Positions 4,730 through 54,162 of a DNA stretch of 64,000 bases are shown in pieces. Made by a program: the position numbers and the translations under genes. The notes beneath the pieces are model-generated. The model searched no databases, was not told the origin of the DNA, and saw nothing but the letters and a program-made list of their open reading frames with translations. The DNA is taken from the NCBI GenBank assembly GCA_964016885.1, contig OZ024742.1, positions 302,746,001 to 302,810,000 on the forward strand, given 5' to 3'. Numbering within the stretch: position 1 is the first letter of the stretch; every line of letters begins with the position of its first letter. Origin of the DNA: Eledone cirrhosa (Eukaryota).

Positions 4730-4785
4730 TTTTGTCTGATGAAGGCATACCATATTTTAATTTGGCATCCCTGAAATATGTATAA
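4730..4785 (+). ncRNA. Degenerate hammerhead-like motif
   Basis: CTGATGA-AGG...CCT-GAAA-TATG-TA. Stems I and III pair poorly. Confidence 0.35.
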
Positions 4786-5207: not shown

Positions 5208-5250
5208 ATCATAAATCTTTCGTTGCACATCTGCAACATCGTCAGTGGTG
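5208..5250 (-). ncRNA. Minimal hammerhead ribozyme, slightly decayed
   Basis: Minus strand reads ACCA-CTGACGA-t-GTTGCA gatg TGCAAC-GAAA-GATT-TA-TGAT. Stem II is a perfect 6 bp, and stem I has one mismatch. Confidence 0.55.
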
Positions 5251-5359
5251 TTATATTTTCCTCCTGTTGTGTTGTATGTCTACGCCATTTTTATTCAGTC
5301 TGTCTATATGAATAAAAAGGGCGTAGACATACAACACAACAGGAGGAAAATATAACACC

Positions 5360-5427
<68 letters not shown>

Positions 5428-8649: not shown

Positions 8650-9800
8650 ATACACACATAGAGGCATAATTCAAGTACGTTATACATGTGGAAAAGGCAG
8701 ATAGGTAAGAAGTACTTACATAACCATAGTACCGTGAGGTGGGTCGAGATGGGGTAGGGGGTAGGGTGGGATGAGGGGGGAGTAACTTATCGAGTGGGGT
8801 TAAACAATTTTTTTTTTATCCCTCTGGCTTCAACAATGGCTTAAGATGTTTGAAAGTTACAAAGCTTTTGTGCATGCAATTCGGGCAGTGTTCAGAGAGT
8901 TTGTTCAGTGTCGGGCCCTTGGCAAATAGTATTTCGTAGCTCTTTGAAATACAAAGCTCACAACACTTGTGTCCTCCCATGTATGAGCGCGCTTTCTGGA
9001 GTAATTTCCATTTGAGCGCGAATGGGGTGGAGTTCCTCTAGAGTGCCCAGGCATAGGAGGCGAGTGTTTTCTGATTGGATTTGTCCGGTCTTCTGAATGA
9101 GTGGGTATGGGCATACCAGCGGGTCTTAAAATTGTTGGAAGTCACTCCGATATAAGTCTTTTTGTTGTTGTCACCAGTGCCTGAGATGACTTATATATAC
9201 GATGTCATTCATCAGGCATTTGTTTTCAAGTGGGCAGGCTTCCTTATTTTGGCAGTTGCACAAAGCTCCCGTCCGGGGATGGGTTTCGGAGGTAGTAGGC
9301 TTATTTAAATTTGTAGTGTTGAGATTGGCTATATTCCTAGCTAGGTGAAGTGTAGTGGAGTAGGAGAGTCTTATTGTATTCTTATTAAAGATAGTGTAGT
9401 ACCTATGTTGTGTGGGGAAGTGTATATTCAGCAATTTGAAGACAGTTCTAGCTATAGGTGTAGAAACCTCTCTATCGAAGGGGGGTTTGTACCTACTAAT
9501 CTGCCTATGCCTATTTCTCCTAGGTAATCTTGGGGTGGTTTCTAAGTAATCTTTTCTTTAAAGCCACTGCGGGCGAGGGCGTCGTTGTAGTAAGGGGCAG
9601 AGGCGCTAAAGATATCTTCATTGACTGAGAGACCAGAAATTATGAGTGAGACGCTTTTAATTAAGTCATCTGTGATGTTTTTGGGGTGGTTCGAACTAAC
9701 ATTTATGTATCTGAGGGACTTGTTAGGTTTGTGGTAAGGGTCATAGAGGGAAGTGTCTAAGTCGAGAGTGATATCTAAAAAGTTGGCCCTAGTCATATTA
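8650..9800 (-). mobile_element. Penelope-like element fragment: RT thumb, Cys-rich linker and GIY-YIG remnant
   Basis: NFLDITLDL...PYHKPN...YINVSSNHP...APYYNDALARSGF (ORF 9542-9859), CNCQNKEACPLENKCL..IVY (ORF 9171-9434) and a terminal NKLSE..CMHK. Frameshifted. Confidence 0.85.
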
Positions 9801-10574: not shown

Positions 10575-10619
10575 ATGAAATACTGTTAGCTTCTCGTTAA
10601 AACAATTTCTATACCTTTC

Positions 10620-10687
<68 letters not shown>

Positions 10688-10843
10688 CTGCTCCCTCACA
10701 AGTTGAGCTTATTAAGTTGTGTGTGTTGGACTGTTATTTCTATTCAATACACGCTTACCACGTTTGACTAGCGGAGCACGAGGTGACAAATTCATCTTTC
10801 TGTGTGAACGTTGGCAAATAGTGTTTGTGGCATTTAATCAGAT

Positions 10844-10923
10844 TCTCTCGCTGATGAAGCCCAGGATTATCTGTTACAAACACACTCAGGGCGAAACAGA
10901 TTAGGGATAATCTGTCCGAGAGA
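10844..10923 (+). ncRNA. Canonical full-length type I hammerhead ribozyme
   Basis: TCTCTCG-CTGATGA-aGCCC...GGGC-GAAA-CAGATTA ggga TAATCTG-TC-CGAGAGA. Stem I is 7 bp, stem III is 8 bp, and cleavage is predicted after 10916. Confidence 0.9.
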
Positions 10924-11060
10924 TATAATGGTTATTGAGGCGGTTTGTATAATAATATATCATTCTGTCTGCTTCTTGGTTAAATATTTCAAACAAATGT
11001 GGTTTTTCAACCCTTGTAATTTTAGACACACGGTTTACTGTGTTTCTTACTATATATTAC

Positions 11061-11094
<34 letters not shown>

Positions 11095-11679
11095 TTATAC
11101 ATACATACACACATATATGTATGCATATATATATGTGTATTTGTGTGTGTGAGTGTGTGTATGGGTGTGTGTGAGTGTGTGTGTCTGTACTTATATATAT
11201 TGTATATATATGCTAAAATTGTATATATATACGCACAAATATATTTGTGTGTGCATACATATGTATCGTATCGTATGCATATGTGTAAGTACGTATGTAT
11301 GCCACCGTATTTATTATACGCAATTATTGTATATGTGTCTTTGTATATTTATATGTGTGGGTATATAGTTTAGCTGCAGGCGTATGTCCGTTATACTCCA
11401 GGAGACAGGCGAAAGCAGGTAGCGAAAGATGTAGTGATTGGGTAACGTCTCTTTAATTATTGCTGGAATAACACAAAATTGTAAGAATTTTAAAAATAAA
11501 AAATCTAGATGGAAAAAACAAACAAAAGCGCGCCTGAATAATGCCGGGGTGCATAAAATGCATGTTTAATACGCTTCTTTACGTGCAGAAATTTTTTCAC
11601 CGAATACATATTTATAAAGGCTTGTATGTATGTATGTTCTTCTGGTTTTATAATTTCACAAAGTTTTACCAATAGAGAG

Positions 11680-22446: not shown

Positions 22447-24460
22447 ATGGCTAATTCCCCTCTGCACGAAGCAGCTGAAAGCCTTCCTCACAAAATAACA
22501 CCTCACACCGACACCACCATTGTAAATGTTACTACGTTTGCCAACACAAAAAAAATATAAGCAGTAGCAATATTTTAAATTTGTCTCAGGCAGACATTCA
22601 TTTCCCGCCATTACCAATGACTGCAGGTGTTAAACCCTCCACCACCACCACCACCGCGACAACCACCACCACCACCACCACCGCGACAACCACCACCACC
22701 ACCACCACCGCGACAACAGAAACAAAAGAAGAAAAAAATAAATTAACTCGTGACGTCGAAATGAAATCAAGCAAAATAGACTCTTCCCCACCAAAGACGA
22801 CTGACGTCACCACCACCACAACTGAAAATAAAATTAATATTAACGATAGCAACAACAACAACAATGACATTATAAAACCGACCCTCAGTTTCGCCATCGT
22901 AGCAAAACAATTCGAAGCGTTCACGGTAACTCAAGAAGATTTAGAAAATGCCAAACAAATGGTAAAGAAAGATGGGTACAGGGTCAGCCTCACCCCCCCC
23001 CACCTAATAAAATGGAGCATCGGCGCCTGTGCACCGTGTCGTATAGAACAATAAATGTAAAATCGCGCCGAGTGGAACGGGCATCCGAGTCCCAAATCCA
23101 AAAAGCTTTGGGACATGTGTGGGCAAGAAAAACCCACATCAGACGTGGGCAAAAGTATGGAACCGTGGATGTGTTCTTTGAAACACCAGAGGAGGCTAGA
23201 GAACACTCCATGGCCCCATTAAAAAGTGACGACCTCACACTCGTCCCAAGCTATTGTGGCCAGAGACTCGTAAAGATCAGGGTGACCCACGTTCCACCGG
23301 CCATCGAAATTCCCTGGCTAATAGCGGCTGTCCTCGCCGGCATCGAAGCCAACACGAAAATAATAGCAGTAGCAAAAGAAAAGCAGGAAAACTGGTCCGG
23401 ATCTGGGATGGAGCTCCTGATCCAAGCGGACCAAAAAAGCATTGAGGAGATCCCAGAGGTAATAGACCTCACTGACGGCAGCCACCTCACGGTAATTGTC
23501 GAGGGCAGAAGACCTAGGTGTGTCGTTTGTGGTGAAGGAACCCACCTAAGGGCTTTCTGCCCTCAGGCTAAAAGATTGAGGCCACCTCTCCTACCCACCC
23601 CAGTGACACAACCATCAACACCACCAGTAGCAGAAATGGCAGCAACAACTGTAGCAGCAACAACAGAAGCAACTATAACAGCAACAACCCCAGCAACAGT
23701 AGCAAAACCAACACCACTACCACCACCAGCAAAACCAACACCACCACCACCCAACGCTTCAGAACTAGCACCAGCGCCTACACCATCCACCACACCACAA
23801 CCAAAAGTAACGGCTGTGGAGGATTTTCCACTCCCCGGCCTATCACAAGTGGAGACAGATTGTGACGACGAGGAGTGGGAAACGATATCCGGAAAAAAAA
23901 AAAGAAACCAAAAAAGAAAAAATTCTCTTCCTTCCCCCTCCAAAAACAAAATACAGAGGGAAACAAATAAACTAAGAAACAAAAAAGTTAGGACAGATAT
24001 GCCACCATCCACACCAGCATCACCAACCCCATCAACCCAAACACCAACACCATCACCATCATTATCCCCAGCACCACCATCACCTACACCACAAAAGTCA
24101 CCAAAATGCGAAACAGAAACAAACCCACAACAAACGCAAACAAAACAAAACAACCAAAACGATACACACTACACAGCATTAAATTTGAACAACAAGCAAT
24201 TATTACACTACATCCAACACAACACCAGCATCACAGAAAAAGACTACACAACAACCCCAAAATTCACACCACCTCCACACATACAAATCACTCGCATCAC
24301 ACAGAAAACGTACATGACACTAAAACAAAAATTCCCCAAAGACATCGGAGACTTCCGACAAGCACTCTCCAGGAGGATTTATAAGGACATCCTTCCTGAG
24401 GAGGCCACAAGCAGTGAAAAGGATGGAAAAGCCGTCCTTCCACTACGAGAAGTAAGGTAA
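22447..24460 (+). CDS. Tx1 ORF1 nucleic-acid-binding protein (RRM-like region, CX2CX4HX4C knuckle, Pro/Thr-rich tail). Two homopolymer frameshifts lie in the 5' part, and 23012-24460 is open (482 aa).
   Basis: Knuckle CVVCGEGTHLRAFC. ATG at 22447. The frame changes at the A-run near 22550 and the C-run near 22997. Confidence 0.85.
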
Positions 24461-24494
24461 GTGGTCTTTCCCATCTTTTCCACTCCTTTTCAAC

Positions 24495-27400
24495 ATGACC
24501 TCACTCAGAATAGGCAGCATAAATGCGCGTGGCTTGGGGTCGTCATGGAAGCAGGGTCACCTGCTCAACGACCTCAGGTCACTAAACATAGATGTAGTGG
24601 CCATCAGCGAGACCAGAATCTCCGAAGCACGGGCCTTTGCACCGATCTTCGGCGGCTACGATGTGTACGCATCTCCCAGCCGTCCTGGATCGGGTGGAGG
24701 AGTTGCTGTGCTTTTTCGGAGAGGTTTGGATCTCGCCATACGGGCCATCTTCCTGGACCCAGAGGGTAAGCTGGTGGTGCTGGACGTGACCAGCGGAGAC
24801 GGGCAAGCTTTCAGGCTAGTGGCCGTCTATGCCCCGACAGGAGCAGGGCGGCCTGATTTCTTCCGGCGTCTGGAGACCTTTCTTGGAACGTCCCGCTCTT
24901 TAGTGTTAGTGGCCGACTGGAACGGGATCTTAGATGCACGCTGGGACTGTGTGGGATTAGCGGATAGGGGTGGAGGGTGCAAGAGCCTCACCAACCTGCT
25001 CAGGCGTTTTGAACTGTCTGACAGGTACCGATTGGATTTCCCGAATGTGCCAATGTGGACTTGGACAAACCGCATAGGGTCATCCAGATCATATCTAGAT
25101 AGAGTATTTTGTAGGGAAATAGATAGGTCTAGCATAGGCTGTCCACAATTCAAGATAGTCAGCTACACGGACCACAAATTCGTGATCTGTGTGCTTGACT
25201 TAGATAGGCTTCATAGACGAGGACCCGGCTACTGGAAGCTAAACGCGTCCTTACCAGCGCGCAAGGCCTACAGAGACCGGATTAGCGAACTAGTTAAGCG
25301 GGCGTTGACGGGGGCCATCGTCAACAACAAGTGGTGGTTTGCTCTGAAAAGAGCAATTAGAATAGAATCGATTAGGTTTAGTAAGGCTTTAGCAATAGAG
25401 AAAAATAGAGCAGAGGGAGAACTAGTTAGAAAATTAGACGAGGCGCTTAGCAAAGGCATTGCGACCGACGTGCTTGCGGCGAAATTGGCCCTTGACCAAT
25501 TCTTCAATGCAAAGCACGAAGGCTGCGTTGTCAGAGCTAGCGTGCGTGCTCTCAGACACGAGGGGACGAAATCCGTTCAATGGGCCCGAGTGGCGGAGGC
25601 GCGTCGTGGCAACAAAGCCACGATCCGGTCTTTGGTGGACCACGACGGGCGCATGCTACTCGATCCCGGGCAAATGTGTGAAGCTTTTCAGCGACACTTC
25701 GCTCAGCTGTTCGGGGGCAGCGGGGGGCCGGGTAGAGGGATGGACTTTAGTGTCTACCTCGACGGACTGCCGCGGCTCTCGGCCACTGAGGCGAAGTGTT
25801 GCGAAAAGCCGATAACAGCCGCTGAAGTACGGGAGGCAATGACTGGCTGCACAAGGGGTAAATCGCCTGGTTTGGATGGTCTGCCCTATGAACTTTACGT
25901 ACAGATGCCAGACTTGTTCGGAGGCTTCTTGGCGGACGTCTACTGCAACTGGCAACAGAACGGGAGAATTCCCAGTTCTGTGAGCCGAGGAGCGGTGGCA
26001 CTGCTGAGAAAGGATCCGAACAAGGGGGATAACATAGACAATTTCCGGCCCATAACTCTGCTAAACACAGAGTTTAAGATTTTGGCCAAGGTGCTAGCAA
26101 AGAGGTTGGCGCTTGTCGTTGGTGGTCTGGTGGGAGAGGCGCAGACATGCGCCATTCCCGACAGATCCATCCACGACAACCTCCACCTCATGCGATACAT
26201 CGTAGAGAGGGTAGCTAGGGAACCTGGCACGGGTGGATCCTTGATCAATTTAGATCAGTCGAAAGCTTTCGATAGGGTCGACCATCGTTACCTAGCGGCA
26301 GTCCTGAGGGCAGCTGGCTTTGGGCCCGTCTTCAGAGGCTGGATCGCTGCCATGCACAGCGACATCTGCTCTGTGGTGAGAGTGAACGGTCACCTGTCGG
26401 AACCGTTCAACATCATGCGCTCGGTCCGCCAAGGATGTCCCCTCTCGTCCCTCTTGTACGTATTGACTCTCGAGCCATTACTGCACAAACTGGAGACGTT
26501 GAGGGGAGTCCCGCGCGAACTAGGATGCGGAAGATCCGTGTCAGCATATGCGGACGATGTCACCGTAGTGGTGTCGAACGCCAAACACATCGAGGCGATC
26601 GGCACTACACTAAGAGAATACGAAGCGGTGACAGGAGCAATGATCAACCAGGAAAAGTCAGTGGGCCTGCAGCTCGGCACCTGGAGAGGCAGGTCCATGC
26701 CGTCCAACAGCGTCGTCGGGCGCTGGACGGACGGACCGGTTAAATTGCTAGGGGTCTGGTTCGGTCCGGACCTCCAGACGGACAAAAACTGGGACGAGGT
26801 GACGAGCAGAGTGGCTTCTCTCACCCAGAAATGGGCGGAGAGGAAGCTATCCCTGAAAGGTCGAGCGGAGGTGGCTAACGCGTACATCGCGTCTGTCATC
26901 TGCTACCGCCTAACCGTCGTACCTTGTCCTAAGCCTCGCCTGACTGCGCTGGAGCGTTTGCTCTTTCGCTTTTTGTGGAAGGGACGTGCTCCGATGGTCA
27001 GGCGGTCCATCTGTTGTCAACACCCGCTACGTGGAGGGCTGGGCATGCCGTGGCTGATGATGCGCAGGTACGCGCTCAGGCTACGACATCTCCACCTCTT
27101 CCTCGACGGTGATCAGGTGTGGTCGCCGTTTGCTAGACGCGTTTTTCCCCAGCTCGTTTCCTTGACGGAGCTGCAGTCCTGGGTCAAGCGAAGACCGAGA
27201 GGGAGCGCCTGGAGACTGGAATGTCTTCAGGCGCTCACAGCCCTCGACCAATCGGGCAATGTGATCGGTGGAAACTCCACCTCGGCGTTCTATAGAGGAT
27301 TAGTGGAGGGGAAGAGCGACGACGTACTTGGGGAAACTCTAGGCGTCGACGAAAATCAACTAGCCAATCTCTTCGGAAGAACTTTCGGGCCAGGGCCTAT

Positions 27401-27914
27401 GGACAACTTCCAGAAATCTCTGGCCTGGCAGTGCTACCGAGGAGCCTTGCCAGTTCGGGATAAACTCTACAGGCATGGAGGTGCCGTCAGCCGGGCATGT
27501 CCGAGATGCGCGCAGGGCGACGAAACCGTCCTGCACGCACTCGTCCAGTGTCCGAAAATTGCTGACTTGTGGGTTTATGTCGAACACCTGCTGTCGCGTT
27601 TAGGACGGATCCAGCTATCATCTGAGTCTATCGTGAGGATTGCCCCGCCCTCCTCCTTTAGCCGGGAAGGGCAGGCAGTTTTTATCTGTCTGGTGGCCAT
27701 GGCGAAAGAGATAGTATGGTGGACACGTTTGAAAGGGCTGAAGACGAGCACTTACCTCTTCGGTGATGCTCTGATTGACTTTTTCAAATTTCATTTGAAA
27801 AGGAAAATCAGAGTAGAGAAGGAAGTGCTCTCTTCCCAGCATTTTGTTGAAAGATGGGTGAGAGAAGCAAGAATGGCCCGAGTGAATGGGCCGACTCTGA
27901 GTATATATCTGTAA
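24495..27914 (+). CDS. Tx1/L1-type ORF2 polyprotein: APE endonuclease, reverse transcriptase and C-terminal CCHC zinc-binding region
   Basis: 1139 aa with SINARG, ISETR, ADWN, YLDRVF, TDH; KSPGLDG, FRPITLLN, LDQSKAFD, QGCPLS, YADD; CPRC...ETVLHALVQC. Confidence 0.97.
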   Translation: MTSLRIGSINARGLGSSWKQGHLLNDLRSLNIDVVAISETRISEARAFAPIFGGYDVYASPSRPGSGGGVAVLFRRGLDLAIRAIFLDPEGKLVVLDVTSGDGQAFRLVAVYAPTGAGRPDFFRRLETFLGTSRSLVLVADWNGILDARWDCVGLADRGGGCKSLTNLLRRFELSDRYRLDFPNVPMWTWTNRIGSSRSYLDRVFCREIDRSSIGCPQFKIVSYTDHKFVICVLDLDRLHRRGPGYWKLNASLPARKAYRDRISELVKRALTGAIVNNKWWFALKRAIRIESIRFSKALAIEKNRAEGELVRKLDEALSKGIATDVLAAKLALDQFFNAKHEGCVVRASVRALRHEGTKSVQWARVAEARRGNKATIRSLVDHDGRMLLDPGQMCEAFQRHFAQLFGGSGGPGRGMDFSVYLDGLPRLSATEAKCCEKPITAAEVREAMTGCTRGKSPGLDGLPYELYVQMPDLFGGFLADVYCNWQQNGRIPSSVSRGAVALLRKDPNKGDNIDNFRPITLLNTEFKILAKVLAKRLALVVGGLVGEAQTCAIPDRSIHDNLHLMRYIVERVAREPGTGGSLINLDQSKAFDRVDHRYLAAVLRAAGFGPVFRGWIAAMHSDICSVVRVNGHLSEPFNIMRSVRQGCPLSSLLYVLTLEPLLHKLETLRGVPRELGCGRSVSAYADDVTVVVSNAKHIEAIGTTLREYEAVTGAMINQEKSVGLQLGTWRGRSMPSNSVVGRWTDGPVKLLGVWFGPDLQTDKNWDEVTSRVASLTQKWAERKLSLKGRAEVANAYIASVICYRLTVVPCPKPRLTALERLLFRFLWKGRAPMVRRSICCQHPLRGGLGMPWLMMRRYALRLRHLHLFLDGDQVWSPFARRVFPQLVSLTELQSWVKRRPRGSAWRLECLQALTALDQSGNVIGGNSTSAFYRGLVEGKSDDVLGETLGVDENQLANLFGRTFGPGPMDNFQKSLAWQCYRGALPVRDKLYRHGGAVSRACPRCAQGDETVLHALVQCPKIADLWVYVEHLLSRLGRIQLSSESIVRIAPPSSFSREGQAVFICLVAMAKEIVWWTRLKGLKTSTYLFGDALIDFFKFHLKRKIRVEKEVLSSQHFVERWVREARMARVNGPTLSIYL

Positions 27915-34397: not shown

Positions 34398-34448
34398 GGC
34401 TTTTACAGGACTAGAACTGTTTCTTTCAGGAGAAATTATCAGGAAGCC
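34398..34448 (-). ncRNA. Hammerhead of the 9912 family with a G8-to-A change (probably impaired), abutting an inverted stub at 34449-34474
   Basis: Minus strand reads GGCTTC-CTGATAA-TTTC tcct GAAA-GAAA-CAG ttctagtc CTG-TA-AAAGCC. Confidence 0.6.
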
Positions 34449-34758: not shown

Positions 34759-35430
34759 TCACAAGAATCAAAGCTATGTTCAAAGCATTTATTCACTTAC
34801 AATTGTTTCATCCAAACCTAGGCTTGGTGTCTTCGGAGCATTTTTCAATGTTTGTACACATAATTGACCTCCTTTCCAACGCAAGAGACATACAGATACA
34901 TATATATATTGATGTACAGTGGAGTGACATATATTATACTATACTATTTAAATACAGCAATTCAAATTCAAAATCAAAATCAAAATCAAAATTAAAATCA
35001 AAATCAAAATTAAAATACATTCGGCAGATAATACAGATAATGCAAGAGGATAGTTTGATAGTCAGATCTAGTAGGTAGTGTATGCGTTAGTTACACATGG
35101 AGCATGAAAGTGTGTCTCATTTTTATATATAACTGCTCTGTAGAACAACTGATGCTATTACATTGAGCTATTTATCTTACTGGTAATAAGGTAGTAATAA
35201 ATTACTGACCTTCACTGTTTAGGGTTTAAAATATACATAATTGAATGAAAAGAAGTATAGGTTGGGTGACGGTGTAATGGTAACACATTGGTCCGGCAAA
35301 CCAAGGATGTGTGTTCGTGTCCCATGTACGTCAATACTCATCCTTTTTTCCATTCAGGGTTTTTTTTTAAAATCACAACTAACAGACTAATTCTATTTGG
35401 TCAAATACGGCGTAAGCACATGTTACTACC

Positions 35431-53509: not shown

Positions 53510-53701
53510 ATAGGAACGAGTAGGACCCCGAGGGCTGAGCTCAAGCCGTTTCGACGGCTAATTCTGGACCAGAATTAGCCGTCGAAACGGCTTGAATCAG
53601 CCGTCGGGGTCCTACTCGTTCCTATTACCCACTCTACTACCCTAAGTATTGAGTACTTTGGTGCGTTATGGTCCACCTCGTTCCTTACCACATTTCTTCC
53701 G

Positions 53702-53765: not shown

Positions 53766-53858
53766 TTATACATATACGTATAATTATAAATACGTTATTG
53801 TAAATACGCACACTATTCAGTTTTCTGATACACTTAGAAGTGAGGAGTTTACTAATTC

Positions 53859-53943
53859 TTCAACCACTGATGAGCAATAAAAACTGGTAATTCTCTTCAC
53901 AATTGGATTGCGAAACAGCATCGCCAAATGCTGTCTGGGTGAA
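53859..53943 (+). ncRNA. Canonical full-length type I hammerhead ribozyme
   Basis: TTCAACCA-CTGATGA-GCAAT...ATTGC-GAAA-CAGCAT cgccaa ATGCTG-TC-TGGGTGAA. Cleavage is predicted after 53935. Confidence 0.88.
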
Positions 53944-54112
53944 TGGTAGTTACCACAATTTCCGTTTGTATTATTTTCTTGATTTATTCTTAAATTGAGT
54001 CTGGCAAACCTTATTGTCCATAGTTAGTATCTTTTTCACCTTAGCGAATCTGTTGCCTTACGATTTGAACACATATATGTATATATCTGTGTTTATCCCT
54101 CTTTTATATTCA

Positions 54113-54162
<50 letters not shown>

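Follow-up and report, generated by a model that had tools for sequence, protein, structure and literature searches.

A type I hammerhead with a stable stem III and a predicted helix between 5′ flank and loop II in a repeat from Eledone cirrhosa

Hammerheads are common in animal repeats, mostly with a short stem III. The described systems closest to the locus analysed here are the hammerheads of PLEs, those of retrozymes, and hammerheads with a pseudoknot; what is said of them below holds for the portions of the cited sources that were compared. Metazoan PLE hammerheads have a conserved extra base after position 9 and before position 10.1 (PMC4209133), whereas those of fungal and protist PLEs are described with a large helix III and no recognisable tertiary contacts (PMC4209133, PMC11167929). 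Reverse transcription of the anole PLE starts at an AC-rich stem-loop (PMC11167929), and solo monomers are common among retrozymes (bioRxiv 10.64898/2026.07.22.740005). A pseudoknot joining stems I and II is present in about 40% of hammerheads; loss of the 5-bp one abolishes the activity of the human C10orf118 hammerhead (PMC3088659).

The hammerhead described here lies in a 64-kb stretch of AT-rich animal DNA that is dense in microsatellites, which was analysed as a whole and is referred to here as the window. Its main feature is that the 5′ flank is complementary to loop II, which the original prediction of a ribozyme at this place did not include.

The hammerhead motif

Flanked on both sides by (TA)n is a module of 365 bases (10686–11050), within which a hammerhead occupies residues 10844–10923 of the plus strand. 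Stem I (10844–10850 with 10917–10923) has 7 bp, Watson–Crick throughout, as seen in the sequence and in the predicted fold. It leads into the core segment CUGAUGA (C3 to A9, residues 10851–10857, with G5 at 10853), followed by an additional base at 10858, between A9 and G10.1, and by stem II (10859–10862 with 10889–10892), which consists of four G–C pairs and carries a loop II of 26 nt. The core segment GAAA (10893–10896) is followed by stem III (10896–10903 with 10908–10915), 8 bp long with a loop at 10904–10907, and by the GUC site ending at 10916, with the cut predicted after C10916. The additional base is A in this copy; the copies described below have A or T, with T making up 48 of the 100 reads of run X8 at this place.

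The motif has the CUGANGA and GAAA segments, the NUH site, the three-way junction and the open stem I of a type I core. When the 64 kb was block-shuffled 200 times, a descriptor requiring at least 7 bp in stem I, 4 bp in stem II and 6 bp in stem III matched neither strand of any shuffle. The hammerhead is real and of type I. As originally predicted, the sequence contains the 7-bp stem I, the 4-bp GC stem II, the 8-bp stem III, the GUC site and the TA flanks; the description of the motif as fully canonical, with a perfect core, does not survive the extra nucleotide A10858 after A9, the 26-nt loop II and the lack of an Rfam match. Rfam hammerhead models reach the gathering score nowhere in the window and have no match at E ≤ 10 in 10600–11600, probably because loop II is long. 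Separately, the Rfam matches by E-value near 11050–11300 are microsatellite matches to miRNA models and were set aside.

Architecture of the repeat

Rather than a unique genomic ribozyme, the module is a copy of a multi-copy repeat family, as judged from the many pieces and reads of graded similarity to it. Copies were mapped to 10676–11062 from four of ten runs (X1, X3, X5 and X8), piece by piece and not as alignments of whole copies. From X1 come 372 contig pieces, and from X8 come 556 reads, with similarities from below 90% to above 99%, and the summed depths of these two runs do not give a copy number. The element is also present in X3, a run of a second organism label.

Located 3′ of the (TA)n is the 5′ head of the element (10686–10722), which has about the same depth as the next 70 nt in X1 and X8, is absent in X5 and has no direct repeat by self-BLAST. 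Starting at the end of the head is a hairpin of 12 bp (10719–10754, from the predicted fold), in which T10722C and A10751G constitute a compensatory pair (U–A to C–G). These two changes have equal depth, as one spanning contig, both in X1 (322.1) and in X3 (4.35), and for this reason probably occur together in one copy; in X8, T10722C is found in 42 of 96 reads and A10751G in 58 of 97. A second long hairpin is predicted at 10766–10816, and of the six changes listed for its stems, five result in standard or wobble pairing and the sixth breaks one pair. One X3 contig skips 69 bases (10705–10773) and represents a deleted variant.

The likely repeat or circle unit spans about 296 nt (10723–11018), leaving outside it the head, which is not a copy of the 3′ end of the unit. 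Its boundaries come from X5 contig 16 (depth 246), which aligns with 10757–11018 and then continues with nine letters that are unique in the window and lie at 10723 (chance about 0.003). This end-to-start junction, observed in a single contig of a single run, points to a head-to-tail or circular unit. It is the only such junction, no tandem array being seen in the material examined, and self-BLAST of the module indicates that the copy in the window is solo. The circular fold of the unit has a predicted energy of −79.7 kcal/mol with 62% of the bases paired (z-score of −3.3 relative to 100 shuffles). An open frame at 10838–11152 is not kept among the copies, because the listed indels are not multiples of three. 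Unlike in X1, one variant makes up 246 of the 252 depth in X5; this pattern would be expected of an RNA library as well as of a homogeneous array, and, the kind of run being unrecorded, no conclusion on expression is drawn from it.

On the 3′ side of the unit is a tail of about 33 nt (11019–11051) containing an AC-rich hairpin (11024–11047, from the predicted fold). The tail is common to other sequences, with 81 X8 reads having different letters before 11018, 17 X8 molecules ending at 11018, and the depth approximately doubling from 11014. It resembles the PLE tail, as far as this is described in the portions compared (PMC11167929, PMC8557442), and the AC-rich stem-loop, the 30–40 bp length of a 3′ tail and the AT-rich target that characterize PLE-mobilised elements are all present. 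No second copy of the tail is contained in the 64-kb window, and no autonomous partner element was found. A Helitron was also considered, on the basis of end motifs, which the ends of the module do not fit.

The PLE-type tail and the (TA)n target would equally be expected if the module were no retrozyme but the solo terminal repeat and tail of an autonomous PLE, left behind by 5′ truncation. PLEs and retrozymes have related terminal repeats, according to the portion of bioRxiv 10.64898/2026.07.22.740005 compared, and there is a PLE fragment at a distance of about 0.9 kb from the module. Beyond the tail (11057–11059), moreover, two sets of X8 reads (42 and 44) and one X5 contig run into one shared non-TA sequence, perhaps that of a longer parent element. 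We nevertheless regard this origin as unlikely: X8 coverage is level up to the 5′ boundary, unlike the outcome of random truncation, one contig joins the end of the unit to its start, and the metazoan PLE hammerheads described in the compared text of PMC4209133 have a minimal form or a short stem III.

Neighbouring elements

The PLE-like fragment (8864–9799, minus strand) is broken and contains the end of the RT, a Cys linker and the endonuclease region, as detected by tblastn with P0001 and P0002 (best E-value of 7e-24); P0002 has a weak RVT_1 match below the curated cut-off. We take the fragment to belong to a PLE from its domain order, and it need not be part of the repeat element. A protein search with the fragment returned no relatives near its length and two longer ones.

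Between 13466 and 27914 are several LINE copies, tandem or nested. LINE frames in the window have RVT_1 and endonuclease domain matches at 24456–27911, and the frame at 24456–27914 is open, encoding 1152 residues with endonuclease, RT and zf-RVT domains. A degenerate tRNA-like match (35268–35333, plus strand, 33 bits) is possibly the head of a SINE. At 5243–5363 is an inverted repeat of 55 nt, 98% complementary with an 11-nt spacer, one end of which is located at a degenerate hammerhead core (5245, minus strand); the arrangement is similar to the inverted truncation seen in PLE insertions.

Predicted pairing of the 5′ flank with loop II

Ending 4 nt 5′ of stem I is a predicted helix, referred to here as helix P, that results from a 19-nt complementarity between the flank (10821–10839) and loop II (10865–10883). 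It is formed by an outer part of 12 bp (10821–10832), a 2 × 2 loop and an inner part of 5 bp (10835–10839). With a duplex energy of −21.7 kcal/mol, it is equalled by none of 5000 flank shuffles. Helix P is a pairing of at least 4 bp between loop II and the strand that extends stem I, which is one of two features that mark pseudoknotted hammerheads of the Perreault type (PMC3088659), the other being that such a pairing exists together with stems I and II and makes cleavage faster.

Folding of the flank-free RNA gives the hammerhead as the predicted minimum free energy structure (probability 0.5–0.56). In a pseudoknot-free model of RNAs ending at 10935, the probability of the hammerhead is 2e-5 with a start at 10821 compared with 0.56 with a start at 10833, and helix P dominates each nested fold containing 10821, including that of the circular unit. 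During chain growth its pair probability is 1.00 once residue 10884 is reached, that is, before stem II can close. The original prediction was that the ribozyme would cleave as a monomer, to be seen in a transcript of 10820–10950. This construct is dominated by an alternative fold in the pseudoknot-free model (hammerhead probability 7.6e-6), an outcome that the prediction itself had named as grounds for its refutation, and could cleave only if stems I and II form alongside helix P in a pseudoknot. Monomer cleavage in general is nonetheless made plausible by the flank-free fold, and the 8-bp stem III would dispense with the dimer folding described for PLE hammerheads with a short stem III (PMC4209133, PMC6765202; portions compared).

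The summed parts of the hammerhead and the outer part of helix P amount to −39.7 kcal/mol before any pseudoknot penalty, compared with −34.5 kcal/mol for the nested fold. The pseudoknot is favoured only with a penalty below about 5 kcal/mol, or about 9 kcal/mol if an extension of stem I is included, and the energies leave the choice undecided. By a rough bookkeeping of chain lengths, the helix spans 31–53 Å and the linker reaches 58–104 Å; the outer part of helix P is easily accommodated, and the full 19-nt helix is tight in this copy (53 Å versus 58 Å). The extension of stem I is formed by an optional second partner of residues 10835–10840 at 10929–10934, seen in the predicted fold. As a conserved tertiary element it was ruled out, because G10930A breaks it in 60 of 113 X8 reads.

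Figures for variation among the copies rest on the 40 of 103 substitutions, 12 of 28 indels and 18 of 108 loose ends that are listed. Among the 40 substitutions, none falls on any of the 49 places in the core or stems, whereas 7 of the 31 free places are hit (Fisher p=0.0008). Loop III is variable at each of its four places and stem III at none. Along the flank strand of helix P, variation is listed at 1 of 17 paired places versus 8 of 14 neighbouring places, which were picked afterwards (p=0.004, same list). Insertions into loop II, among those listed, are at 10862, 10863 and 10884, all outside the helix P strand, and the outer eight letters of the flank are kept in the listed loose ends of divergent copies in X1 and X5. 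Helix P is altered by G10829C (52 of 65 X8 reads), which turns a wobble into a mismatch with the loss of one pair, and by the absence of one base at 10824 in X5 contig 16, for which no change of partner is shown. Among the listed changes in contig pieces and single reads, none is a two-sided compensatory change inside helix P.

A second hammerhead in the window

Scanning the window revealed a further hammerhead with a stable stem III, which the original prediction did not mention; having the same build, it rivals the first as the best candidate in the window, albeit with one mismatch in stem I. This motif, module 2 (53840–53943, plus strand), is of type I, with its core at 53867, a 5-bp stem II, a 28-nt loop II, a 7-bp stem III and a GUC site with the cut predicted after 53935; the mismatch is A–G. 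Its 5′ flank (53840–53854) pairs with loop II (53885–53900) through 8 + 6 bp, and this helix likewise ends 4 nt before stem I. Of two sets of shuffles, 11 of 5000 in one and 3 of 3000 in the other match its energy of −17.1 kcal/mol. Module 2 lies within a TA-flanked stretch of roughly 330–360 bp (about 53780–54120) that has a hairpin near its 3′ end. Homology of the two modules was ruled out, as 216 of 300 shuffles score equally. About 150 bp upstream of module 2, and 3′ of a TA run, is a near-perfect palindrome of 116 bp (53510–53625), with arms of 29 and 27 nt and a fold of about −100 kcal/mol.

Relaxing the scan to a stem III of at least 4 bp gave three matches in the window: the first module, the motif at 53867 and a match at 34442 on the minus strand, which was set aside because it is weak, has a 4-nt loop II and is antisense to an apparent PLE coding sequence. 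Two minimal hammerheads, at 4736 (plus strand) and 34639 (minus strand), have no 5′ helix (2405 and 2920 of 3000 shuffles are as good). The former has a 2-bp stem III and a loop II that can pair over 9 bp with the 3′ flank, weakly (102 of 3000 shuffles as good); the latter is of the minimal PLE type, with a palindromic stem III region, and lies near TA repeats.

Both motifs with a stable stem III were missed by the Rfam models, and families of this kind may be undercounted for that reason. A pattern scan of viral contigs gave no loci. Three loci from the scan of metagenome contigs were rejected, having no similarity to the module beyond core letters; hammerhead-like cores at L001:501-544(-) and L002:93-149(-) are unrelated to the family of the first module.

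Possible roles of helix P

We favour, with a probability of about 0.5, a reading in which the module is a non-autonomous, PLE-mobilised retrozyme-like repeat, the hammerhead likely cleaves as a monomer, and helix P is a long pseudoknot that holds stems I and II. On the basis of the folding models, helix P would form first during transcription, and stems II, III and then I would close onto its 25-nt loop while at least 8–12 bp of its outer part are retained. Cleavage after C10916 is predicted to convert tandem transcripts into monomers of about 300 nt, which could be ligated to circles. A PLE reverse transcriptase would then start within the tail hairpin or beside it, and the copies would be inserted into (TA)n.

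The dominance of helix P in the nested folds can also be taken at face value, with the helix folding first and keeping the ribozyme off, such that circles and uncut RNA survive for reverse transcription and cleavage follows only upon refolding, aided for example by a PLE protein. Helix P would in that case replace the dimer requirement of hammerheads with a short stem III. Blocking of this kind is the main rival reading, although less probable than the one we favour. It would account for the nested folds containing 10821, for the circular unit and for module 2, in which the nested probability of the hammerhead is 4e-6; for the presence of a flank helix in the two hammerheads of the window with a stable stem III and its absence in the two minimal ones; and for the two competing partners of residues 10835–10840, found likewise for the matching segment of module 2. 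An attenuating alternative structure has reportedly been found in a luteovirus satellite hammerhead, which we count on the same side. The anole PLE, in the portion of PMC11167929 compared, inserts mainly uncut RNA and has a ribozyme that requires protein.

A blocker made ahead of the ribozyme, however, would leave no window for co-transcriptional cleavage, and yet the core is conserved; helix P, which precedes the rest of the ribozyme, is therefore likely to be compatible with cleavage. In addition, stems I and II are replaced only by short pairings in the nested alternative, the extension of stem I, as the supposed second state, is broken in the X8 reads noted above, and the offset of 4 nt from stem I, fixed in two families, would suit a docking geometry. 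The conserved core and the equal offset, together with the finding that shorter pseudoknots of this type are needed for fast cleavage (PMC3088659, portion compared), are our reasons for preferring a helix that supports stems I and II.

Part of helix P consists of low-complexity GU/AC letters, and plus-strand windows that pair equally well with loop II number 3 of 12794 for the first module and 28 of 12794 for module 2, flank windows included. Such figures would be compatible with an accidental complementarity, arising by local inverted duplication; a related view is that the copy is a single ribozyme domesticated by the host. Both are very improbable, considering that position and layout are the same in two unrelated families, that helix P is spared by variation, and that the element is a repeat. 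The cross-family argument for helix P has n=2 families.

We tentatively suggest that several unrelated small families mobilised by PLEs in this genome have swapped dimer control for a ribozyme that acts as a monomer and is gated by a long two-part helix between flank and loop II. If true, this would be a natural on/off switch between RNA that is cut and circularised and RNA that is left whole for retrotransposition. With two unrelated families that have a stable stem III, a loop II of 26–28 nt and a flank helix at equal offset, whether the helix supports or blocks the ribozyme is testable with short transcripts.

Comparison with known systems

What distinguishes these animal repeats from the descriptions compared is that a stem III of 8 bp, a loop II of 26–28 nt and a two-part flank helix of 14–17 bp occur together. 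An earlier account of this layout, or of retrozymes in cephalopods, is absent from the literature covered, which lacked most subscription papers, figures and most supplements; similar motifs could be present in those supplements of PMC3088659, PMC7229834 and bioRxiv 10.64898/2026.07.22.740005 that lay outside it.

With the non-LTR retrozymes of metazoans, as described in the compared portion of PMC7229834, the module shares the type I hammerhead and a low-GC, non-coding, self-paired unit of 150–450 bp, and it is multi-copy and highly self-paired itself. In unit size and tail, and in the tandem or circular form suggested by the one junction, it fits the accounts of PMC7229834 and PMC11167929, to the extent compared. 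Helix III of metazoan retrozymes is short, 1–2 bp where stated in that text, whereas that of the module has 8 bp; their loops 1 and 2 make the classical contact or none, whereas the module has a 26-nt loop II and a flank helix of 12 + 5 bp (PMC7229834). Also unlike the retrozymes of this source, the module begins with a 5′ head that the joined unit does not include, and for the tandem and circular forms of retrozymes the one end-to-start junction is the only candidate here.

PLE hammerheads, in the portions of PMC4209133 and PMC11167929 compared, have in common with the module the type I arrangement, the extra base between 9 and 10.1, the G10.1–C11.1 pair, the AT-rich target and, downstream of the cut, a tail of 30–40 bp with an AC-rich stem-loop. 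The metazoan ones differ in having a minimal or short helix III and acting as dimers or with protein, in contrast to the 8-bp stem III of the module. Assignment to the minimal or dimeric metazoan type, with helix III absent or a palindrome of 1–2 bp, was rejected on these grounds, stem III being 8 bp long and unvaried among the listed variants.

The Pistol-like PK hammerhead (PMC11300833, portion compared) shares the hammerhead core, a pseudoknot and an extra helix beside helix I. Its pseudoknot takes the place of helix II, however, whereas the module has a full helix II, and its extra helix surrounds a strand of stem I, the core and a strand of stem II; the complete stem II rules out a Pistol-like topology. 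Pseudoknotted hammerheads of all three types, as described in the compared portion of PMC3088659, share a Watson–Crick helix linking the arms of stems I and II. In those hammerheads the helix has 4–6 bp, whereas here it has 14–17 bp, is built of two parts and occurs in mobile repeats.
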